Sequence record: PZ154897.1
Strand: one strand, 5' to 3'
DNA length: 64,000 nt
Origin: a phage
The position numbers were made by a program, and so were the translations under genes. Shown here one piece after another: positions 4,439-63,000 of the stretch. How positions within the stretch are numbered: the stretch's first letter is position 1; each line of letters opens with the position of its first letter. The notes below the pieces were generated by a model. It worked only from the letters and a program-made list of their open reading frames with translations. It was not told the DNA's origin and did not search any database.

Positions 4439-4930
4439 ATGTTTGTAGATGATGTAACACGAGCGTTTGAATCTGGTGATTTTGCTCGACCTAACTTATT
4501 CCAAGTAGAAATTTCTTATCTTGGACAAAATTTTACGTTTCAATGTAAAGCCACTGCTTTACCAGCTGGTATTGTAGAAAAAATTCCAGTCGGATTTATG
4601 AACCGTAAAATTAACGTAGCAGGCGATCGTACATTCGATGACTGGACTGTTACAGTAATGAACGATGAGGCACATGATGCTCGCCAGAAGTTTGTTGATT
4701 GGCAAAGCATTGCTGCTGGGCAAGGGAACGAAATTACTGGTGGAAAACCAGCAGAGTATAAAAAGAGTGCTATCGTTCGTCAATATGCTCGTGACGCTAA
4801 AACAGTAACAAAAGAAATCGAAATTAAAGGCTTGTGGCCTACTAACGTGGGTGAACTTCAATTAGATTGGGATTCAAACAATGAAATCCAAACATTTGAA
4901 GTAACTCTTGCTCTCGATTATTGGGAATAA
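4439..4930 (+). CDS. 19: tail tube protein gp19
   Basis: 163-aa ORF; T4 gp19 length and sequence by recall. Confidence 0.95.
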   Translation: MFVDDVTRAFESGDFARPNLFQVEISYLGQNFTFQCKATALPAGIVEKIPVGFMNRKINVAGDRTFDDWTVTVMNDEAHDARQKFVDWQSIAAGQGNEITGGKPAEYKKSAIVRQYARDAKTVTKEIEIKGLWPTNVGELQLDWDSNNEIQTFEVTLALDYWE

Positions 4931-13304: not shown

Positions 13305-14435
13305 TTATGGATAGGTATAGATGATACCAGTTTCTAAAGCAGTTTTATGAATGATGTATCCATTACGTGATTCTTGAACATCAACTTCTGGATAGTCTTT
13401 CATCATCTTCTGAAGAGTGTAACGATGCAGGTAGTATTTACTGTCTGGATCTTCAGTTTTCCAATCTTTACCTTCTTCAGTCATTTTTTGAATTTCATCC
13501 ATAACCCACCAACCGCACCAGATATAAGCTGAAGTACGATGTGGAAGAGGATGAACATAAGGTAATTCACCTTCTGGTTCCGGAGCAACTTTATCAGTTA
13601 CCTGAACTTGACCTTCTGCTGTGATAGTTTTGCTATCATAATCAGTTGCTGTAACGACAGCAGTAACTTCAATAGTTTGACTTCCAACAGATGAGGTATC
13701 GACAGTATATACGTTAGTTGACCCTTCTACAGGAGAAGAATCTTTCTTCCACGAGTAAGTAATTTGTGCTGCGTCAGGTGCGCCAGTAACATTAGCAGTA
13801 AATGTAGCCGAAGCATCCTGCTGAACATTAATAGAAGGAGGAGTCAATGCAATCTGTGGATTCATTGTCTTCTTATTAACTGTCAATGATACTTCATTAG
13901 AAGTAACTTCTTTTGTATCATAATCTGTCGCTGTTACTTGAGCTACACACTTAATTTTTTTAACTCCGCTTGTAGTAGGAGTGTAATTGAATGTAGCACT
14001 AGTTGCTTCGCTCACAGGAGAACCATCTACATGCCACTGATACGTAGCAGATGCACCTGATGGTTGAGAAGCTAAGGCAGCGGTAAATTCAACAGGAGTT
14101 CCAATTACTCCAGCAGCAGGACTAGCAGGAGTTACAGCTAAGGTAGTTGTCTGTGTCTTATTTTGAACTGTGATAGTTGTAGAAGCTTCTGCTGTTTCGG
14201 GACTACTATCGGCAACTTGATTGGTTGCAACTACTTTAATAGTCTTTTGCCCGGAAGGTCCTTTTAGTACATAACTAAAAGTTGCTGACGTTTCTTCCTG
14301 TGGAGAGTCGTCTACAGTCCAAGCATATGTAATAGGTCCATCTCCAGTTTGACCACTGGGTGTAGCAGTAAACTGCTGAGTCTGATCTATAACTCCAGTA
14401 GGTGTTTTAGGAGTTATATCAACTGTAAAAGTCAT
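13305..14435 (-). CDS. hoc: highly immunogenic outer capsid protein Hoc (Ig-like repeats)
   Basis: 376-aa ORF, repeated Ig-like T/S-rich modules; T4 Hoc length. Confidence 0.85.
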   Translation of the reverse strand: MTFTVDITPKTPTGVIDQTQQFTATPSGQTGDGPITYAWTVDDSPQEETSATFSYVLKGPSGQKTIKVVATNQVADSSPETAEASTTITVQNKTQTTTLAVTPASPAAGVIGTPVEFTAALASQPSGASATYQWHVDGSPVSEATSATFNYTPTTSGVKKIKCVAQVTATDYDTKEVTSNEVSLTVNKKTMNPQIALTPPSINVQQDASATFTANVTGAPDAAQITYSWKKDSSPVEGSTNVYTVDTSSVGSQTIEVTAVVTATDYDSKTITAEGQVQVTDKVAPEPEGELPYVHPLPHRTSAYIWCGWWVMDEIQKMTEEGKDWKTEDPDSKYYLHRYTLQKMMKDYPEVDVQESRNGYIIHKTALETGIIYTYP

Positions 14436-15175: not shown

Positions 15176-16687
15176 ATGACTGACATTAAAGTACATTTTT
15201 ATGATTTTAGTCACGTGAGAATTGATTGTGAAGAAAGTACATTTCATGAACTCCGTGATTTCTTTAGCTTTGAAGCTGATGGGTATCGTTTTAATCCGAA
15301 GTACAGATATGGCCACTGGGATGGACGAATCCGTCTTTTAGATTATAATCGTCTTCTTCCATTCGGCTTAGTCGGGCAAATTAAAAAGTTCTGTGATAAC
15401 TTTGGCTATAAAGCCTGGATTGACCCACAAATTAACGAAAAAGAAGAATTATCAAGAAAAGATTTTGATGAATGGCTTTCTAAATTAGAAATCTATTCAG
15501 GAAATAAAAGAATTGAACCACACTGGTATCAAAAAGATGCAGTGTTCGAAGGATTAGTTAATCGTCGTAGAATTCTTAATCTTCCAACATCCGCTGGTAA
15601 ATCTTTAATTCAAGCTTTGCTTGCTCGATATTATTTGGAAAATTATGAAGGTAAAATTCTTATCATTGTTCCAACAACTGCTCTGACAACTCAGATGGCT
15701 GATGACTTTGTTGACTATCGTTTATTCAGTCATGCAATGATAAAGAAAATCGGTGGTGGAGCATCAAAAGATGATAAATATAAAAATGATGCACCGGTAA
15801 TTGTTGGTACATGGCAAACTGTAGTAAAACAACCAAAAGAATGGTTCTCACAGTTTGGAATGATGATGAATGATGAATGCCATCTTGCCACAGGAAAAAG
15901 TATTTCATCTATCATATCAGGTTTAAATAACTGCATGTTCAAATTCGGTTTGTCTGGTTCATTACGTGATGGCAAAGCCAATATCATGCAGTATGTTGGA
16001 ATGTTTGGTGAAATATTTAAGCCAGTAACGACTTCTAAATTAATGGAAGATGGACAAGTAACTGAGTTAAAAATTAATAGTATTTTTCTTCGTTATCCCG
16101 ATGAGTTCACTACTAAATTAAAGGGAAAAACTTACCAAGAAGAAATAAAAATTATTACTGGGCTCAGTAAAAGAAATAAATGGATCGCTAAATTAGCTAT
16201 TAAGCTTGCGCAAAAAGATGAAAACGCTTTTGTCATGTTTAAACATGTATCGCATGGTAAAGCTATTTTCGATTTAATTAAAAATGAATACGATAAAGTT
16301 TATTACGTATCAGGGGAAGTTGATACAGAAACCCGCAACGTAATGAAAACCTTAGCTGAAAATGGTAAAGGAATAATTATAGTAGCTAGTTATGGCGTAT
16401 TTTCTACTGGTATTTCAGTTAAAAATCTGCATCATGTTGTTTTAGCGCACGGCGTTAAATCAAAAATCATTGTATTACAAACAATCGGTCGTGTATTACG
16501 TAAGCATGGTTCTAAAACAATCGCAACAGTCTGGGACCTCATTGATGACGCGGGCGTAGTTTCTAAATCAAAAACATCTTCTAAAAAATACTCGCATTTA
16601 AACTATCTTTTAAAACACGGACTTGATCGTATTCAGCGTTATGCTGATGAGAAGTTTAATTATGTGATGAAAGAGGTTAAACTTTGA
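15176..16687 (+). CDS. uvsW: UvsW recombination/repair helicase (SF2)
   Basis: 503-aa ORF; Walker A TSAGKS, DECH box; T4 UvsW length. Confidence 0.9.
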   Translation: MTDIKVHFYDFSHVRIDCEESTFHELRDFFSFEADGYRFNPKYRYGHWDGRIRLLDYNRLLPFGLVGQIKKFCDNFGYKAWIDPQINEKEELSRKDFDEWLSKLEIYSGNKRIEPHWYQKDAVFEGLVNRRRILNLPTSAGKSLIQALLARYYLENYEGKILIIVPTTALTTQMADDFVDYRLFSHAMIKKIGGGASKDDKYKNDAPVIVGTWQTVVKQPKEWFSQFGMMMNDECHLATGKSISSIISGLNNCMFKFGLSGSLRDGKANIMQYVGMFGEIFKPVTTSKLMEDGQVTELKINSIFLRYPDEFTTKLKGKTYQEEIKIITGLSKRNKWIAKLAIKLAQKDENAFVMFKHVSHGKAIFDLIKNEYDKVYYVSGEVDTETRNVMKTLAENGKGIIIVASYGVFSTGISVKNLHHVVLAHGVKSKIIVLQTIGRVLRKHGSKTIATVWDLIDDAGVVSKSKTSSKKYSHLNYLLKHGLDRIQRYADEKFNYVMKEVKL

Positions 16688-17376
16688 ATTATAAATTAAT
16701 ATATGATAATTTAATTAATAGAGCCCAGAATCGGGCTCGCCTTAATGGATACACTGAAACTCATCATATAATTCCTAGATGTATGGGCGGTACAGATGAT
16801 AAGTGTAATTTGGTAGAACTAACAGCTGAAGAGCATTTTATAGCTCATAAACTTTTAGCTAAAATTCATCCAAACCATTACGGTATAATTAAAGCCGTTA
16901 TATGTATGGGGATGAATTCAAAGACTCATGAAAGACACGTTAATAAATCTTACGCCTGGGAACGTCGTAAAATGGCAGAACTTCAATCAGGTGAAGGTAA
17001 TCCATTTTACGGAAAACACCATACGGAAGAACATAAACAATATATGTCAAAACTCATGAAAAATCGTCCAATTACGTGGGGAAGTAAAATTAGTAAAACT
17101 AAAAGAATGAACCCAACAAAATGGACTGAAGAAGCTAAAAGATTGCATTCTATCAATCAATCAGGTAAAAATAATGGCATGTATGGAAGGAAACATTCCG
17201 CTAAATCTATTCAGAAAATTAAAGATAACATGCCAGATAATTCAGGAGCTAATAACCCAGCTGCTAAACCTATAGAAGTAAATGGTGTTAAGTATAAATG
17301 CATGAAAGATGCTTCTAAAGCTACTGGATTATCAATGTACAAACTAAGAATACTTAGAAAAACAGTTAATTTATAA
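16684..17376 (+). CDS. HNH homing endonuclease with NUMOD3-like repeats
   Basis: 230-aa ORF; HHIIPRCMGG...N...EH..AH HNH motif; NPFYGKHHTEEHK repeats; N-terminus paralogous to 43031-43762; TTG start overlapping uvsW stop. Confidence 0.8.
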   Translation: MNYKLIYDNLINRAQNRARLNGYTETHHIIPRCMGGTDDKCNLVELTAEEHFIAHKLLAKIHPNHYGIIKAVICMGMNSKTHERHVNKSYAWERRKMAELQSGEGNPFYGKHHTEEHKQYMSKLMKNRPITWGSKISKTKRMNPTKWTEEAKRLHSINQSGKNNGMYGRKHSAKSIQKIKDNMPDNSGANNPAAKPIEVNGVKYKCMKDASKATGLSMYKLRILRKTVNL

Positions 17377-23842: not shown

Positions 23843-24937
23843 ATGGCAATTGTTAAAGAAATAACTACTGATTTAATTAAAAAGTCCGGTGAGAAAATTT
23901 CAGCCGGACAGAGTACTAAATCAGAAGTAGTAACTAAAACATACACTGCCCAGTTTCCAACTGGGCGTGCTAGTGGTAATGACACTACAGGGGACTTCCA
24001 GGTAACAGATCTATATAAGAATGGATTATTATTTACTGCATACAATATGTCATCTAGGGATTCTGGAAGTCTTAGATCGATGAGATCTAACTACTCTTCT
24101 TCATCTTCGAGTATTTTAAGTACAGCTAAAAACACTATTAGTAGTACAGTATCAAAACTATCAAATGGATTAATATCAAATAATAATTCAGGAACAATAA
24201 GTAAAGCTCCTGTCGCAAATATTCTTTTACCGAGATCTAAATCTGATGTTGATACATCATCACATAGATTTAATGATGTTCAAGAAAGTCTTATTAGCAG
24301 AGGCGGAGGTACTGCTACTGGTGTGCTAAGTAATATTGCTTCAACCGCAGTATTTGGGGCACTGGAAAGTATAACACAAGGCATAATGGCTGATAATAAT
24401 GAACAGATTTATACGACAGCCAGAAGTATGTATGGTGGTGCTGAAAATAGAACTAAAGTGTTTACATGGGATTTGACTCCACGTTCAACAGAAGATTTAA
24501 TGGCTATTATTAATATCTATCAATATTTTAACTATTTTTCTTATGGTGAAACGGGTAAATCTCAATATGCTGCTGAAATAAAGGGGTATTTAGATGATTG
24601 GTATCGTTCTACGTTAATTGAACCTTTATCTCCGGAAGACGCAGCTAAAAATAAAACACTATTTGAGAAAATGACAGCAAGTTTAACGAACGTTCTTGTA
24701 GTTTCAAACCCGACAGTTTGGATGGTGAAAAACTTTGGCGCAACATCTAAGTTTGATGGAAAAACGGAAATATTTGGTCCATGCCAAATACAGAGCATTA
24801 GATTTGATAAAACACCTAATGGTAACTTTAACGGATTAGCTATTGCTCCAAACCTCCCTAGTACATTTACTCTCGAGATTACTATGAGAGAAATTATCAC
24901 GTTAAACCGTGCTTCTTTATATGCGGGGACTTTTTAA
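23843..24937 (+). CDS. 48: baseplate tail-tube cap gp48
   Basis: 364-aa ORF; T4 gp48 length. Confidence 0.9.
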   Translation: MAIVKEITTDLIKKSGEKISAGQSTKSEVVTKTYTAQFPTGRASGNDTTGDFQVTDLYKNGLLFTAYNMSSRDSGSLRSMRSNYSSSSSSILSTAKNTISSTVSKLSNGLISNNNSGTISKAPVANILLPRSKSDVDTSSHRFNDVQESLISRGGGTATGVLSNIASTAVFGALESITQGIMADNNEQIYTTARSMYGGAENRTKVFTWDLTPRSTEDLMAIINIYQYFNYFSYGETGKSQYAAEIKGYLDDWYRSTLIEPLSPEDAAKNKTLFEKMTASLTNVLVVSNPTVWMVKNFGATSKFDGKTEIFGPCQIQSIRFDKTPNGNFNGLAIAPNLPSTFTLEITMREIITLNRASLYAGTF

Positions 24938-25724
24938 TGTATTCTTTAGAGGAATTTAATAATCAAGCAATAAACGCAGATTTCCAACGTAATAATATGT
25001 TTAGCTGCGTTTTTGCGCTGGCACACAAAAACTGATAAGAAAATCAGGGGTTAGTAAATATCTTATTGGTGCCATGAGTCAACGTACAGTTCAAAGTTTA
25101 TTGGGCTCATTTACAGTTGGTACATATTTAATTGACTTCTTTAACATGGCATATAACTCATCTGGATTGATGATATATTCTGTAAAAATGCCAGAGAATA
25201 GATTATCCTATGAAACTGACTGGAACTATAATTCTCCTAATATTCGTATAACTGGGAGAGAATTAGACCCTTTGGTTATTTCATTTAGGATGGATTCAGA
25301 AGCATGTAATTATCGTGCGATGCAAGACTGGGTTAACGCTGTTCAAGACCCAGTAACTGGATTGCGTGCTTTACCACAAGATGTCGAGGCAGACATTCAA
25401 GTTAATCTTCATTCTCGTAATGGATTGCCTCATACTGCGGTGATGTTCACTGGATGCATTCCAATATCAGTGAGCGCTCCTGAGTTATCATATGATGGAG
25501 ATAACCAAATAACTACATTTGATGTTACTTTTGCGTATAGAGTGATGCAGGCTGGAGCGGTTGATAGGCAAGCTGCGCTTGAATGGCTTGAATCTGCTGC
25601 TATAAATGGTATTCAAAGCGTTCTCGGAAATAGTGGAGGTGTTACTGGACTATCTAATTCGCTTTCACGACTTAGTAGACTAGGAGGAACCTCAGGAAGC
25701 ATTTCAAATATTAGTATACTATGA
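24937..25724 (+). CDS. 54: baseplate tail-tube initiator gp54 homolog, interrupted by a frameshift as sequenced (32 codons at 24937-25035, remainder in -1 frame to 25724)
   Basis: Tube-fold motifs split across two frames (FQRNNMFSCVF in frame A; ...TTFDVTFAYRVMQ in frame B); synteny after gene 48. Confidence 0.7.
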
Positions 25725-25772
25725 CAGGGATTGTCAATTCGCAAAGTAAAATATTAGGAGCAATATAACAAT

Positions 25773-25790
25773 GGGGACCGAAAGGTCCCC
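25773..25790. terminator. bidirectional terminator between 54 (+) and alt.-3 (-)
   Basis: GGGGACC-GAAA-GGTCCCC with T-run. Confidence 0.8.
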
Positions 25791-25796
25791 ATATTT

Positions 25797-26087
25797 TTAT
25801 TTACGGAATGAAATGAAAGCAGCAACTGAAGCAACTAAACTGTCTTCAATATAAACTTCAATTTTTACCGGAGCTTCTGACTCAAATTTACCTGTTACTA
25901 CACCTTGGAAAATACTTTCAGTCTGTTCTGGCTTTGAAAAATTTTCAGAAGGAAAAATTCCAAACTTTTTATCTGTTCCGAAAATTTTGATAAATTCATC
26001 ATAAACTGCTTCATTAAAAGCATTATCAGCAGGAATAACGCCTTCAACTACAAGTTCTTGACCTAAAAAGCGTAAAGAAGATTTCAT
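25797..26087 (-). CDS. hypothetical protein (alt.-3 position)
   Basis: 96-aa ORF with GAGGAA RBS, downstream of early promoter. Confidence 0.55.
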   Translation of the reverse strand: MKSSLRFLGQELVVEGVIPADNAFNEAVYDEFIKIFGTDKKFGIFPSENFSKPEQTESIFQGVVTGKFESEAPVKIEVYIEDSLVASVAAFISFRK

Positions 26088-26118: not shown

Positions 26119-26148
26119 ACTATAACACAACACGAGGGACTTGTAAAC
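26119..26148 (-). promoter_or_regulatory. early sigma70-type promoter (GTTTACA-N17-TATAGT)
   Basis: Minus-strand -35 at 26142-26148, -10 at 26119-26124; drives ORF starting 26087. Confidence 0.7.
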
Positions 26149-26505
26149 TACATTTTGAACTTTTTAGTACGCGTAATAGGCATGCGTCGATTTTATACTG
26201 TTTCATTGTTTGAAGAGCAGTATCAAAAACAGCATTAATGACACCAATTGGATTTCCACCCAAGTTTTTAAGCTTAACTAATGATAGTTTCTCATTAACA
26301 CCTATCATTACGATATGCATCATTTTGTCGCCTGGCTTAACGTTTTTATTTGTATCACCGCCAGAGGTGTATGTACAAAATCTAAATCCAGGAAGCACGC
26401 TTTCTTCGCCGGCTTGAATAGCAAAATTTGTGGTATTTTATGCTTAGGATTTAAGTTAACAACCGGCGCCGAAGCGCCGTCAAATAATTCTGTAATAAGT
26501 TCCAT
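26120..26505 (-). pseudogene. frameshifted partial duplicate of alt 5' region (alt.-1/alt.-2-like ORFs)
   Basis: MELITELFD...NLNPKHKIPQI and PGFRFCTYTSGGDTN...MKQYKIDACLLRVLKS parallel Alt residues 1-120 in two frames. Confidence 0.6.
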
Positions 26506-26508
26506 GAT

Positions 26509-28560
26509 TTATCCTTGAACGAACTTGTAAGGCATGTTTGCAATATCTATGCAAGACGCAATAATTCCAAGAGATGATTCTACTTTCTGTTTAACATTTG
26601 ATGAAACAAATGATGCAAAGTCAACTCTATCTTCTATATCACCTGTCATTGTAACCAATTCACCAGTTTCCATTAAATGGTCTCCGTCATAGATTACCGA
26701 TTCGGTGAGTTCTTCTGTGGTCATAACTTCAGCTTGAATAAGCTTGTTGTTAGTTCTAACTGTTCCATCGTTGTAAGATGCATCGGTTATTTTATTAACT
26801 TTGACCATTAATCCACGTGGCAAAATGACTTCCATTTCATTTGAAGGCGCTAAACTTCCACCGGGTAAAACAACATTGACTTTATCAGCCCCAGTAATAA
26901 CCCATCCAATTCCAACTAAATTATCGCTAGAATTTACAAGTCCTTCATCAGTTTTATCAATAGAAACACTTAGACGCTTTTCGTCTGGTAAAACACCTAT
27001 AGATGAATCAGTCATCCAAGTACCAAAAATATTTGGATATAATGATGTTGACACAAAGTTTCTAAAATAAAAAACTCGATTTTTTACCATTGCTTCATAT
27101 ATTGAAGGTAACATTCGTTGTGAACGATACAAAGTAATACCTTTTGGTAATCGTTCACCATTTTTAAAGGCTGAATCTAAATTATCAATGGCTTGTTCTA
27201 TTTCAGGTGCTGTTAAAATACTTGTACGCTCATCTGGATTATATAATCCCAAAAGAGCATTATTCATGTCTACATATCCTGAACCTACATATTCACGAAT
27301 TCCGCGTTTTTGCGCTGGTGTGTATTTAGATGAATCTTTATTTTCGACTATAGGATGTAATGACCATCCAGCGGTAAGAGCATATCCACGTAATTCTCTT
27401 CGAATAATCTTTGTTTTTATTGCATTCCAAGAATTTTGTACTAACTCATTTGCAGCATCTTGGTTTAAATGCGAATGTCTGTTAATATTTCTTTCAAACC
27501 AAGCACCTTTATATTTTTCTAAAGTATCATCGACGATAGAAGCAATAGTTTCTAAAGTTTTTATTGAAGTAATAGATTCTTTTCGTAATTTTTCTAAAGC
27601 TTTATTTTTTATTTCTGCATTAATAATGGATTCTTTATCTTCAGGAATTATAGAAGCTTCTCTGAATGCCATCCCAGCTGTAACACTGCTAAGAGCATTC
27701 TCTAGTGCAAATCCTGAAGTAGAAATTACCGTTAATTCATTAGAATCAGAAATTAAAGGAGCGTCCGCTGGTTTATTTAATTCTGCCGCTGAAGCCTCAA
27801 ATTTTTGAAACATCGGTGTTTCAAATCTAGAAGATTCCAATGACTGACTTTGTGCAATTGCTCTACGGGAAATTTTAACTTTAACGATTACAGCTTGGTC
27901 AGAACGTTTATCATTTTCTTGTGCAATAGATGCTGCAATTGCCTCATTTTTAGTTACTTGAGCTCCAGTATCTTTATTGATATAAACATCACCGACCTTC
28001 GATTCAACCTTAGTAAAGAGCTCGGTACTAATTTCCGGAACCCCTGGAATGTCTTCTAGTGATACATTTTTGCGATGTATAAGAATATATGCATACTTTT
28101 TATCATAATCCCAGAGTTCCTTAAGAAGGACGTATCTGCCACCTGAACGACTACGGATAAGTCTATCAGCAATAACTTGAATTTGTCGAGCTTGACCAGC
28201 GGTTTTAGACTTAAGAATACGGAGCATACAAGCATCAATTTTATATTGACGCATTGTTTGCATTGCAACAGTAAAAACTGAATTGATATAATTAATTGGG
28301 CTTGGCCCAAGACCTTTCAATTTAGCAATTGAACCTTTAGCGGTTAATGTAAAAGGAACAATATGCATCATTTTATCGCCCATCTTTAAATCACGATTAG
28401 TATCACCTCCAGATGTATAGGTACATAAACGAAAGCCCGGTTGTTCAATTGCGTCATCAACATGAACTGAAAAAATTTGCGGTATTTTCTTCTTTGGATT
28501 TAAGTTTGTAATTGGAAGAGTAGTATCTTCGTCAAATAATTCTGTAATTAGTTCCATCAT
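26509..28560 (-). CDS. alt: Alt, packaged ADP-ribosyltransferase
   Basis: 683-aa ORF; T4 Alt is about 682 aa; synteny next to gene 30. Confidence 0.9.
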   Translation of the reverse strand: MMELITELFDEDTTLPITNLNPKKKIPQIFSVHVDDAIEQPGFRLCTYTSGGDTNRDLKMGDKMMHIVPFTLTAKGSIAKLKGLGPSPINYINSVFTVAMQTMRQYKIDACMLRILKSKTAGQARQIQVIADRLIRSRSGGRYVLLKELWDYDKKYAYILIHRKNVSLEDIPGVPEISTELFTKVESKVGDVYINKDTGAQVTKNEAIAASIAQENDKRSDQAVIVKVKISRRAIAQSQSLESSRFETPMFQKFEASAAELNKPADAPLISDSNELTVISTSGFALENALSSVTAGMAFREASIIPEDKESIINAEIKNKALEKLRKESITSIKTLETIASIVDDTLEKYKGAWFERNINRHSHLNQDAANELVQNSWNAIKTKIIRRELRGYALTAGWSLHPIVENKDSSKYTPAQKRGIREYVGSGYVDMNNALLGLYNPDERTSILTAPEIEQAIDNLDSAFKNGERLPKGITLYRSQRMLPSIYEAMVKNRVFYFRNFVSTSLYPNIFGTWMTDSSIGVLPDEKRLSVSIDKTDEGLVNSSDNLVGIGWVITGADKVNVVLPGGSLAPSNEMEVILPRGLMVKVNKITDASYNDGTVRTNNKLIQAEVMTTEELTESVIYDGDHLMETGELVTMTGDIEDRVDFASFVSSNVKQKVESSLGIIASCIDIANMPYKFVQG

Positions 28561-43031: not shown

Positions 43032-43762
43032 TAATTTTTCCTCTTTAAAATTCTGCCGTGTTTCCAACCTGGCGGAATAATATCATCTTTACCTATAAGC
43101 GTGCATTCACTTCCATTATTAATCCATTTCTTACCGCGGATTCCTTTATAATCTCTTGGTTTTATTTTGTCAAACTTTGCATCAAGTTGATATGACCATC
43201 TAAATCCATAAGCATATTGAAATTTACCCTCGGCACAATATTTGATATTTGATCCGTTTCCATTAACTGACCGGGACGCTGCCGCAATAGAGTGAAAGGT
43301 TTCTATGAAATCCCCGTCTAATGAGAATTTATGTATTTCTATAGATGGGCATGCATATCTATTCACGTTTGATACATGCTGTTTAGTTTCGTTTTTATGG
43401 TGCTTGCCTAACATTCCTTTAGGATGAGGATTATTTTTCCAATATTTCTTAAAGAACTCAGAATTAGCTTTAGCAAATAATTTTCTGTGTAAGCTGTACA
43501 ATCTGTTATTAATTCTATTGCCAGCTTTATCTGTTGCCATTAACGTTAACGCAGAGGCAAGCCCAAAATGGCCTTCATTTATCTTACATAGTAGTAGATG
43601 AGCTATAAAATGTTCTCTGGCTGTTAATTCAACTAAATTTTCCTTATCATCAGAACCTCCCATACATCTAGGGATTATATGATGTGTCTCTTTATATTCT
43701 GATAAAGATTCCCGAGCCTGAGCTCGGGAAATTAGGTCGTTATAGATTTTTTGATAATTCAT
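43031..43762 (-). CDS. mobE: HNH homing endonuclease, MobE-like, between nrdA and nrdB
   Basis: 243-aa ORF; HHIIPRCMGG...EHFIAH HNH motif; position as T4 mobE. Confidence 0.8.
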   Translation of the reverse strand: MNYQKIYNDLISRAQARESLSEYKETHHIIPRCMGGSDDKENLVELTAREHFIAHLLLCKINEGHFGLASALTLMATDKAGNRINNRLYSLHRKLFAKANSEFFKKYWKNNPHPKGMLGKHHKNETKQHVSNVNRYACPSIEIHKFSLDGDFIETFHSIAAASRSVNGNGSNIKYCAEGKFQYAYGFRWSYQLDAKFDKIKPRDYKGIRGKKWINNGSECTLIGKDDIIPPGWKHGRILKRKN

Positions 43763-46026: not shown

Positions 46027-46283
46027 AAGTCCTCAACTTGAAAATCGTCTTTAAACAATCGGTTAACTATATGAGCTATTATATCACCATGACACGGCTT
46101 TGGTTTACATGTGCATCCTAGCCTCATTCCACGTAAAGGCTCTAAATGTGCTTTAGTTATTTCTCCGGATTTAATTCGACGTATAAAATCTTTTTTGAAT
46201 AATTCAATGGCAGCCTCCCGGCTGCCAGCATCTTTACCGACGTAATTTCCCCCAAAATGTACCACGGTGAATATTAACATCAA
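46017..46283 (-). CDS. hypothetical Cys/His-containing protein (nrdA.1 position)
   Basis: 88-aa ORF; CTCKPKPCHGD. Confidence 0.45.
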   Translation of the reverse strand: MMLIFTVVHFGGNYVGKDAGSREAAIELFKKDFIRRIKSGEITKAHLEPLRGMRLGCTCKPKPCHGDIIAHIVNRLFKDDFQVEDLCN

Positions 46284-59325: not shown

Positions 59326-62300
59326 ATGGCTACTTTAAAACAAATACAATTTAAAAGAAGCAAAACCGCAGGTGCACGTCCTGCTGCTTCAGTATTAGCC
59401 GAAGGTGAATTGGCTATAAACTTAAAAGATAGAACAATTTTTACTAAAGACGATTCAGGAAATATCATTGATTTAAGCATTTCTGCTGGCGGTAATATCA
59501 GTGGAAATATCACTCAAACTGGTGATTATACACAGACTGGAAAATTTAATTTAATTGGTCCGCAAATTGTAGCAAGCGGTGGATATATTGAGTTTAATTA
59601 TCGTACTACTGGAAGTGGGTCTTGGGCCGGTCAACACACCGCAAAAGCTCCAATTTTTGTAGATTTAAGCTCAGCTACTTCCACATCTGAATATAATCCT
59701 ATAATTAAACAACGCTTTAAAGATGGAACTTTTTCATTAGGTACTTTAGTTTCTGAAGGTTCGTTGAAGATTCATTATATCAATGAATCTGGCGATTCGA
59801 AATATTGGACGTTTCGACGTGATGGCGGATTTACTGTTGACGGCGGAGGTTTAGCAGTATCAGGAGGTAGTATAACTACATCTGGAAATATTGCAGCTCT
59901 CGGAAATATTACTTCACCTCAGATTAATACTAAAAATATTATTTTAGATACAAAAGCATTCGGACAATACGATTCGCAGTCATTAGTTCAATATGTTTAT
60001 CCTGGAACAGGCGAAGAAAATGGTATAAACTATCTTCGTAAAGTTCGAGCTAAATCAGGTGGAACTATTTACCATGAAATTGCTTCTGCGCAGACTGGTA
60101 AGAATGATGAAATTTCTTGGTGGACTGGAAATTCGCTTACTACTAAATTAATGGGTCTTCGTAATGATGGCGCAATGGTATTACGTCGTTCACTTGCTAT
60201 TGGCACAATTACCACTGATGAAAATACTAACAACTATGGTTCTCCTACTCCAATGGGAGAAAGATATATTGCTTTGGGTGATGCTGCAACTGGTTTAAAA
60301 TATATTAAGCAAGGCGTTTATGATTTAGTAGGTAATTGGAATTCTGTTGCTTCTATTACTCCTGATAGTTTCCGTAGTACTCGTAAAGCATTATTTGGAC
60401 GTTCAGAAGACCAAGGCGGAACCTGGACAATGCCTGGAACGAACGCTGCTCTCTTGTCTGTTCAAACCCAGGCAGATGTGAATAACGCAGGCGATGGTCA
60501 AACCCACATTGGATATAATTCTGGCGGTAAATTTTCCCATTATTTCCGCGGTAAAGGCCAAACCAACATTAATACGCAGGAAGGTATGGAAATTAACCCT
60601 GGTATTTTGAAATTGGTAACTGGCTCTAATAACGTACAGTTTTATGCTAACGGAACGGTATCTTCAATACAAAGAATTAAATTTGATAACGGAGTAATTC
60701 TTACTGGTGCTAGACCTGACGGTATTCAACTTGACGCTCCTACATCAGCAGATGGCACTAAAACTATACTGTGGGCTGGTGGTACTCGCGCAGGTCAGAA
60801 TAAAAGTTATGTATCTATTAAAGCATGGGGTAATTCATTTAACGCATCTGGCGATCGTGCTCGTGAAACAGTTTTTGAAGTGGCTGACGGGCAGGGATAT
60901 TATTTTTATGCACAACGCACTACTCCTGCATCAGGTCAAACAGTAGGTCCGGTTAACTTTAAATTTAACGGAACTGTCGAAACAGGCCATATCATAGGCC
61001 TTGGAAATATAAGTGCCTCCGGTACAGGTTCTTTTGGTGGCAATGTTACCATGTCTAATGGTTTGTTTGTCCAAGGTGGTTCTTCTATTACTGGGCAAGT
61101 TAAAATCGGCGGAACATCAGATGCATTAAGAATTTGGAATGCTGAATATGGCGCAATTTTCCGTCGTTCTGAAGATAAGTTTTATATTATTCCAACCCCA
61201 CAGAATGCGGGTGAATCAGGTGGCATTTCTAATTTACGTCCGTTCTATATTACATTAAGTAATGGTAAAGTTTCCATGGATCATGATGTAGATATCGGTG
61301 GCGGTAGATTTAAAGTAGAAGTGGCTGGAACAACATCAGGGCAACGTATTACAGTTAATATGGCATCAGATGCTATTAGACTAAATGCTCCAACGCAAGA
61401 GTCTTCTAACTTCATCCAAGGACGTAAAGCAGATGTTCCGAAATGGTATTTAGGTATTGGCGATGGCGGCAACGTCGTTCGTATGCACAGTTACACCTAC
61501 TCCCACGGTATTGCATTAAACTCTGATACGGTTGATATAGCTAAACCTCTTAGAATAGGTTCAGCTCAATTAGGTACTGATGGTAATATTACTGGCGGTT
61601 CTGGTAATTTTGCTAACTTGAATACCACAATAAATAACCTTAAGACGGATATTGTCTCAAGTTATCCAATTGGTGCTCCGATTCCTTGGCCTACTGATAC
61701 ACCTCCTGAAGGTTATGCCATCATGGAAGGTCAAACATTTGATGCCAACTTGTATCCTAAGTTAGCTGCGGTGTATCCTTCCGGCGCTCTGCCTGATATG
61801 CGTGGTCAAACTATCAAGGGTAAACCATCCGGGCGTGCTGTATTAAGTACAGAAGCAGACGGTGTTAAGTCACATAGCCATAGTGCAAGTGCATCAAACA
61901 CAGATTTGGGTACTAAGACCACTTCTAGTTTTGATTACGGCAGCAAAACGACTTCAAGCTTTGATTATGGTACTAAGACCAGTAATACCACTGGCAACCA
62001 TAACCATACAGTGAGTGGTAATACTGGTTCCGCTGGTGCTCACCAACATGCGCGTTCAGGCCCTCAGATGCAAGGCGGCATACCCACTAGCATATTCTAT
62101 GATGGATACAATAGTGCGGGTCCAAACGGCAACGCTAAAATCACTGGAACCGTGAGCGGTGCTACTGCATCGTCGAATATGGCCAAAACTTCTTCAGACG
62201 GTGCCCACACCCATAGTTGGTCTGGTACTACTAGCGCTACTGGTAACCATGCTCATACTGTGGGTATTGGTGCTCATACACACACTGTAGGCATTGGTGC

Positions 62301-62418
62301 TCATACTCACACGGTAGCTATTGGTTCCCATGGACATACAATAACTGTAAATGCCACAGGAAATACAGAAAACACAGTTAAAAACGTTGCTTTTAACTAT
62401 ATCGTTCGTTTAGCATAA
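59326..62418 (+). CDS. 37: long tail fibre distal subunit gp37 (receptor-binding tip with His-rich repeats)
   Basis: 1030-aa ORF; C-terminal HxH repeats [24 protein letters not shown]; synteny. Confidence 0.93.
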
Positions 62419-62422
62419 GGAG

Positions 62423-62444
62423 AAGGGACTTCTGTCCCTTTTTA
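62423..62444 (+). terminator. hairpin after gene 37
   Basis: AAGGGAC-TTCT-GTCCCTT followed by TTT. Confidence 0.65.
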
Positions 62445-62448
62445 TAAT

Positions 62449-63000
62449 ATGAAACTCTATCACTATTATTTTGACACTAAAGAATTTTACAAAGAAGAAA
62501 ATTATAAACCATTAAAAGGCGTAGGATTTCCGGCTCATTCGACACCAAAAAAACCTTTAGACCCTAAAGAAGGCTATGCTGTTATATTTGACGAACGCGA
62601 ACAAGAATGGGTTTATGTTGAAGACCATCGTGGAAAAACAGTATGGACATATGATAAGCAAAAAATTGTTATTGACACTCCAGGTGCTCTTCAAAATGTT
62701 ACTACAGAAGAACCTGGTGAATTTGACATTTGGACCGGCGACGGGTGGAAGGAAGATGAAGCATATAAACGCGTAGTTCAACGTGATAAGAAAATTCATG
62801 AACTCTATAAATTATTCAGTGTTTTAAGTTCTCTTATTGACGCAGAGGTTGCTAATAGAGAAGAAAAACGAAAATTTAAAGAGCTCAAAAAATTCTTTGC
62901 CCTTTTAGAAAAACATGAACATCTTGGCGGCGAATTCCCTAAATTCCCTGACCTTGAAAACAAATCTATTTTCAAAGCGATTATAAATATCTTTAAGTAA
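62449..63000 (+). CDS. 38: gp38, T4-type tail fibre assembly chaperone
   Basis: 183-aa ORF; T4 gp38 length and N-terminus MK(L/I)YHYYFDTKEFYKEENYKP by recall. Confidence 0.85.
   Translation: MKLYHYYFDTKEFYKEENYKPLKGVGFPAHSTPKKPLDPKEGYAVIFDEREQEWVYVEDHRGKTVWTYDKQKIVIDTPGALQNVTTEEPGEFDIWTGDGWKEDEAYKRVVQRDKKIHELYKLFSVLSSLIDAEVANREEKRKFKELKKFFALLEKHEHLGGEFPKFPDLENKSIFKAIINIFK

Follow-up and report, generated by a model that had tools for sequence, protein, structure and literature searches.

A 136-nt out-of-frame deletion splits gene 54 in a T4-like phage sequence record and very probably leaves a null allele

The stretch of phage DNA analysed here (64,000 nt of record PZ154897.1, given 5' to 3' and hereafter called the window) contains a gene 54 whose reading frame is split in two. 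The features of the locus are listed below, together with their state in the relatives vB_Eco_F26 (F26) and RB14.

23843..24937, + strand: gene 48 (baseplate tail-tube cap), intact, a 364-aa ORF.
24937..25035, + strand: 5' remnant of gene 54, 32 codons, ending with TGA at 25033-25035.
25010-25014, + strand: T5 run, wild-type, within gp54 codons 25-26; identical in F26 and RB14.
25016..25017, + strand: deletion junction; 136 nt are missing between these two bases in the alignment with F26 and RB14.
25027-25031, + strand: A5 run, wild-type, within Gln-Lys-Leu (CAA AAA CTG); identical in F26 and RB14.
25017..25724, + strand: 3' remnant of gene 54 in the -1 frame, corresponding to F26 gp54 residues 73-307.
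25771..25792, bidirectional: intrinsic terminator hairpin, closing the late unit after gene 54.

The gene 48 product matches F26 gp48 with 99.5% identity over residues 1-364 in a single frame, and its stop overlaps the start of gene 54 in the sequence TAATG, which places the gene 54 ATG at 24937. The product of the 32-codon ORF opened by this ATG is MYSLEEFNNQAINADFQRNNMFSCVFALAHKN, with codons 1-27 (24937-25017) representing authentic gp54, followed by five out-of-frame codons (L-A-H-K-N) and the TGA. The remainder of the gene is found in the -1 frame, which is open from 25005 to its stop at 25724 (239 codons). The first start codon available in this frame is the ATG at 25074, equivalent to Met92 in the intact protein, and the ORF begun there has 216 aa. 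The single uninterrupted ORF of about 285-330 codons that characterizes the family is absent from the window, its place being taken by ORFs of 32 and 216 codons. An earlier, sequence-only reading of the window had described the same arrangement, and every coordinate that it reported was reproduced, including the 32-codon ORF overlapping the gp48 stop (seen in the ORF listing and by direct reading), the continuation in the -1 frame with its opening and its first ATG, and the positions of the T5 and A5 runs. The split ORF is genuinely present in the window sequence and is not a chance pattern.

Homology and synteny agree that the gene is gene 54, as had been proposed; its product gp54 is known as the baseplate-tail tube junction protein or initiator. 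The 32-codon ORF belongs to gp54 and carries its true N-terminus, residues 1-27 being identical to those of the intact F26 protein at 27 of 27 positions, and residues 73-307, encoded in the other frame, share 99.6% identity with F26 gp54. The gp54 of an intact relative matches PDB chains 9ufn_C and 5iv5_W with E-values around 1e-190, and 9f4a_BQ is matched as well, gp54 being a virion protein whose structure has been solved. The PHROG family phrog_45 recognizes both fragments, residues 1-28 on the one hand and the downstream ORF on the other (E = 2e-58). The position is likewise that of T4 gp54 (5IV5 chain W; 9UFN chain C; PHROG 45), with gene 48 ahead of it and with the terminator and the alt region behind it, gene 54 being the last gene of the late hub unit. 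The gp19 motifs that the earlier reading had quoted for comparison are indeed present in the window (4439-4927), and gp54 residues 147-245 align to gp19 residues 57-158 with E = 1e-5. Pfam returns a sub-threshold match to the gp19 family over the C-terminal tube region only and is silent on the part of the protein discussed below. The protein called "gp54" in phage XM1 was considered and dismissed as an unrelated capsid protein.

Alignment with F26 and RB14 exposes the nature of the interruption. The window is identical to both relatives up to ...GCGTTTTTGC (25016) and identical again from GCTGGCACACAAAAACTG (25017), the bases at the junction reading TTTTTGC/GCTGGCAC (slash at the junction; junction string TTTGCGCTGG). 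The intervening block, AACAACTCC...CTAATTACA, is 136 nt long when the segment is extracted from the relatives and counted, and it comprises 45 codons plus 1 nt, covering gp54 residues 28-73 with the product TTPSTKSSSLISSISNFSYNNLGLNS[N/D]WLGLTQGDINQGITTLITA. As 136 equals 45 x 3 + 1, reading passes out of frame at the junction, which is blunt and free of microhomology, the bases on either side of the deletion not being repeated at the opposite end. A search for the missing 136 nt within the window returned only chance matches of at most 15 nt, indicating that the block has not been relocated there. The gene 54 split is caused by the loss of these 136 nt and not by a slip at an A or T run. The suggestion of a genuine frameshift in an essential gene survives only insofar as the deletion shifts the frame.

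The sequence-only reading had placed the frameshift at the A5/T5 region, offering a homopolymer sequencing error as one of its explanations. However, relatives whose gene is intact have both runs unchanged, along with 40 nt to the left and right of the junction, and the frame is lost through the deletion. The A5 run happens to stand directly 5' of the out-of-frame TGA, and with runs of five or more occurring at 5.9 per kb in the window, the presence of such runs inside the overlap is unremarkable. The T5 and A5 runs are bystanders that flank the junction by chance. An error of this kind would mean that the true genome carries A6 (or T6) and a continuous 262-codon ORF. One base added in the overlap (25005-25032) does fuse the two frames into a single 262-aa ORF, as had been noted, and a real one-base run difference was found elsewhere in the window, in an accessory ORF at 46249-46253. 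Yet the extra A does not restore the native protein, as the fused ORF still lacks 45 conserved residues that all homologs examined possess. Moreover, no difference in run length was found against F26, RB14 or the matched flanks of the related records, and one base cannot explain 136 missing ones. We consider a one-base homopolymer error at this locus extremely improbable.

How widely the deletion occurs was assessed in several collections. Megablast with positions 24600-26000 as query against 50,697 phage records retrieved 500 Tequatrovirus-type records with 90-98% identity, all matching in two pieces, and among the matches listed the spans exceeded that of the query by 134-136 bases. A second query, 80 nt long with the junction at its centre, likewise hit 500 phage records; all 15 of the matches listed covered 216 nt (80 + 136) in two pieces. 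In 209 of the 500 records the identity was at least 99%, indicating that the same T5 and A5 runs are present in intact genes. Neither the viral contigs of IMG/VR nor the metagenome contigs of JGI contained the exact 30-nt junction, and a search of 185,579 species-representative genomes gave no match either. The two-frame arrangement is shared by none of the 500 phage records retrieved, and the homologs examined are all single ORFs. Within the material searched, the 136-nt deletion appears to be unique to this window.

The remainder of the window was compared by tblastn with 88 F26 proteins. The other conserved genes proved to be full-length and in a single frame, including those for terminase, sheath, tube, portal and capsid, the hub genes 51-27-28-29-48, DNA ligase, gp32 and the tail-fibre genes 34-38, while gene 54 was the sole structural gene matched in two frames. 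Given the intactness of the other conserved genes, errors are not a general feature of the window sequence, and the lesion is specific to this locus.

Several further differences from the relatives were recorded in the course of these comparisons. Over its first 24 kb, the window shares ~97% identity with the nearest phage records. Look-ups of the 216-aa ORF, gp48 and Alt by exact sequence gave no match, and none was found among E. coli assemblies. At the 3' end of gene 54, a 2-nt GT insertion (25714-25715) is shared by the window and F26 and is absent from RB14 and T4-type genes, giving a gp54 that ends in ...SNISIL* (307-aa type) instead of ...SNINTMTGIVNSQSKILGAI* (320/321 aa). A matching +2 span occurs in about eight independent phages among the top matches, which suggests that gp54 naturally varies in length at its C-terminus. 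In the terminator at 25771-25792, the stems (GGGGACC/GGTCCCC) are the same as in F26 and RB14, but the loop reads GAAA here and TTTC there. One loop is the exact reverse complement of the other, the outcome to be expected if a palindromic bidirectional terminator undergoes inversion or template switching. Beyond it, two short overlapping ORFs on the - strand (26120-26505; 92 aa and 61 aa) are similar to the first ~120 residues of Alt, an ADP-ribosyltransferase, and lie directly downstream of a full-length alt (26509-28560, - strand), at a place where a 67-aa fragment is annotated in F26. These ORFs look like a decayed, frameshifted remnant of an alt paralog. The run difference at 46249-46253 (- strand) consists of G5 here and G4 in F26 and falls in a small ORF just upstream of nrdA. 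This ORF has a later start in the window and yields 88 aa from a TTG, as against the 102-aa F26 product. The lesion is of the type that the earlier reading had put forward for gene 54, here in an accessory gene.

The content of homing endonucleases differs from that of F26 as well (window 43364-43762 and 16684-17373). An endonuclease ORF between uvsW and uvsW.1 is kept in the window, whereas the endonuclease genes F26_0222, F26_0224 and F26_0231 have no counterpart there. The gene nrdA is a continuous 754-aa ORF in the window and is annotated in F26 as two parts around an HNH endonuclease. Against a backbone identity to F26 of ~97-100%, far lower values are seen for Hoc (13308-14435, - strand; about 51-55%) and within the tail-fibre region (59326-62985, + strand), where gp37 reaches 51% and gp38 66%. 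For genes 37-38-t, tail-fibre DNA from the phage collection comes no closer than ~90% identity. The divergence of Hoc, gp37 and gp38 is of the mosaic kind typical of the host-range and decoration genes of Tequatrovirus.

Whether the segment missing from gene 54 is dispensable was examined through its conservation. The best 120 of 239 gp54 homologs are 292-325 aa long, and in an alignment of homologs reaching down to 59% identity, residues 28-73 are ungapped and contain conserved positions. A search for orthologs among 1.84 billion cluster representatives extended this picture, as full-length collinear gp54 orthologs of 285-330 aa were found with identities as low as about 26-31%. Matches to generic tube proteins (160-260 aa) were confined to gp54 residues ~120-250. 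In an alignment of 16 orthologs down to 22% identity, the segment between the DFQRxNMFS first strand and GAxNxRxVxSxLG is retained and Pro30, which falls inside the deleted stretch, is invariant; the window lacks 46 residues (28-73) of this gp54-specific segment, Pro30 included. With gp54 residues 1-28 corresponding to phrog_45 positions 75-103 and the downstream ORF matching from position 110, residues ~29-110 constitute an insertion relative to the generic tube profile. By sequence comparison, this insertion is gp54-specific yet ancient, and it has been kept in all gp54 orthologs examined. Four short proteins (P0214, P0127, P0129 and P0122), considered as truncated gp54s, turned out to be fragments at contig ends that lack this junction. 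Modelling of the intact protein with AlphaFold2 from a 40-sequence alignment reached a mean pLDDT of 48, with residues 28-122 below 50, and the model is too poor for structural arguments. The literature consulted for the N-terminal region holds general statements on copy number and role only: gp54 is present in 6 copies, and gp48 and gp54 together form the platform for gp19 polymerisation (PMC3004832).

The position of the junction also permits a milder account of the lesion, namely that a viable phage arose by an in-frame 135-nt deletion via CA microhomology (TTTGCA/GCTGG) and that a one-base miscall was made at the junction. Both wild-type ends carry CA (..TTTGCA/ACAAC.. and ..ATTACA/GCTGG..), the event would take out precisely 45 codons, and the window falls short of its expected product by a single A; the lost segment is, besides, an insertion relative to the generic tube profile. 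Nevertheless, the missing A lies outside any homopolymer, so that a miscall is not favoured, and the conserved genes elsewhere in the window are free of such errors. The orthologs weigh in the same direction, as no natural gp54 without the segment was found and Pro30 is invariant. An in-frame deletion combined with a miscall is therefore improbable in our view, carrying only a slim chance.

Translation might, alternatively, resume at the ATG at 25074, with the resulting 216-aa C-terminal part of gp54 working alone or together with the 32-aa peptide. This ATG stands 39 nt past the stop of the 32-codon ORF with a weak GGTG 2 nt upstream, and the product would keep most of the tube-fold region. 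It would, however, lack the nearly invariant first strand DFQRNNMFS and the conserved residues 28-92. In addition, the spacing between GGTG and ATG is very short, and no homolog of such architecture was found, contig-end fragments aside. The T4 late-promoter motif (TATAAATA) is absent from 19638 (upstream of gene 51) to gene 54, and none was found close to the second ORF, which lacks a promoter of its own. Together, these features make functional re-initiation hardly credible. Complementation between the two halves as a split protein was rejected for lack of any signal or conservation.

A different way of joining the two frames would be recoding within 25005-25035, be it -1 frameshifting, +2 hopping or transcriptional slippage, giving a functional gp54 without residues 28-73. 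Perfect re-pairing is formally possible at two places: tRNA-Phe could shift on U UUU (25011-25014), and tRNA-Lys on the AAAAA that immediately precedes the stop. The demand would be small, 6 gp54 copies per virion being sufficient, and the deletion falls within the gp54-specific insertion, outside the core tube-fold region common to gp19. Against this stands the composition of the overlap. No X XXY YYZ heptamer exists in the zero frame of 25002-25035, the nearest approach being C AAA AAC. Predicted folding downstream is no better than that of shuffled sequences (MFE z -0.61 for 25033-25120 and -1.07 for 24990-25090, for pseudoknot-free structures). Efficient transcriptional slippage needs runs of roughly 8-9 or more A or T, and the overlap contains runs of 5 nt only, which are too short. 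Since the overlap is the same as in phages whose gene requires no shift, it bears no adaptation for recoding; the two-frame arrangement occurs in no relative examined, and conservation of the missing segment extends down to 22% identity. We regard recoding to a functional gp54 as exceedingly improbable, and the programmed -1 frameshifting or transcriptional slippage raised by the earlier reading, which finds neither heptamer nor structure, long run or conserved arrangement, as very unlikely. A related proposal is that the phage is viable as written. Spontaneous, low-level -1 slippage, either of tRNA-Phe at 25011-25014 (U UUU) or of tRNA-Lys/Asn at the AAAAAC ahead of the UGA, would then provide each virion with its six gp54 copies; this, too, seems highly improbable.

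Comparison with established recoding systems points in the same direction. The -1 frameshifting of lambda G/GT and of E. coli dnaX resembles the present locus in having overlapping frames in a tail gene and an A-rich overlap. These systems are defined by conservation, whereas the gene 54 overlap has no slippery heptamer, no stimulatory element and no conserved two-frame arrangement. T4 gene 60 provides a precedent for a T4-family gene whose coding sequence is discontinuous in the DNA. There, a 50-nt coding gap has been inserted and is conserved along with take-off and landing codons and a hairpin; gene 54 of the window, in contrast, has lost sequence and gained none, and a bypass of the gene 60 type was rejected here, as neither such signals nor conservation were found.

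These observations are best explained by a null allele of gene 54 that arose through a unique 136-nt out-of-frame deletion, present either as an error or edit in the record or as a defective variant, and we hold this explanation to be very probably correct. The window is derived from a Tequatrovirus (T4-like phage) whose gene 54 has lost residues 28-73 together with its frame; translation from the authentic start ends after 32 codons, and the remaining 235 codons, standing in the -1 frame, have no efficient route to translation as gp54. The comparisons demonstrate the deletion itself, its uniqueness in the material searched, the conservation of the lost segment and the lack of recoding signals; we infer the loss of function from this conservation and from the classical genetics of the gene. 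Gene 54 is essential: T4 gene 54 amber mutants are lethal and form baseplates without tubes. The window would share with these mutants the premature termination of gp54 and the expected phenotype of baseplates unable to nucleate the gp19 tube, but its lesion is a 136-nt deletion with a frameshift rather than a suppressible point mutation. In comparison with the T4 gp54 family as a whole, the window copy lacks residues 28-73 and runs out of frame, whereas the other members examined are single ORFs of 285-330 aa. Gene 54 being the last gene of its late unit, the lesion has no polar effect downstream.

As to how the null allele came to stand in the record, we infer two candidate origins. The deletion may have entered through an error or edit when the sequence was assembled or deposited. 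Alternatively, it may represent a defective deletion variant derived from a mixed population or an uncultivated assembly, in which intact genomes would supply gp54. Misassembly by repeat collapse, the common way in which assemblers fail, is disfavoured by the clean state of the rest of the window and by the lack of any repeat at the junction. A plaque-purified phage cannot carry a null gene 54 as its majority form, which means that a real variant would need a mixed population or a helper. Viability argues against a real deletion in a clonal phage. Most likely, the sequence is not that of a self-sufficient viable phage at the gene 54 locus. The locus is best read as an ordinary lesion in a well-known gene, that is, as an inactivated or mis-recorded copy and not as a recoding signal.

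The main value of the finding lies in quality control, as the record, judged as written, would encode no functional form of gp54, an essential protein present in six copies. Annotators and other users of the genome should flag the disruption of gene 54 in this record. The case also illustrates that a split ORF beside short homopolymers need not reflect a homopolymer problem, alignment to one relative having been enough to expose the deletion. Should the deletion nonetheless be real in a clonal, viable phage, part of a module that is conserved down to 22% identity would be dispensable. Should such a phage be viable by slippage, a 45-residue part of the gp54-specific insertion would be dispensable for tail-tube nucleation, and an essential structural protein could be supplied by fortuitous frameshifting.
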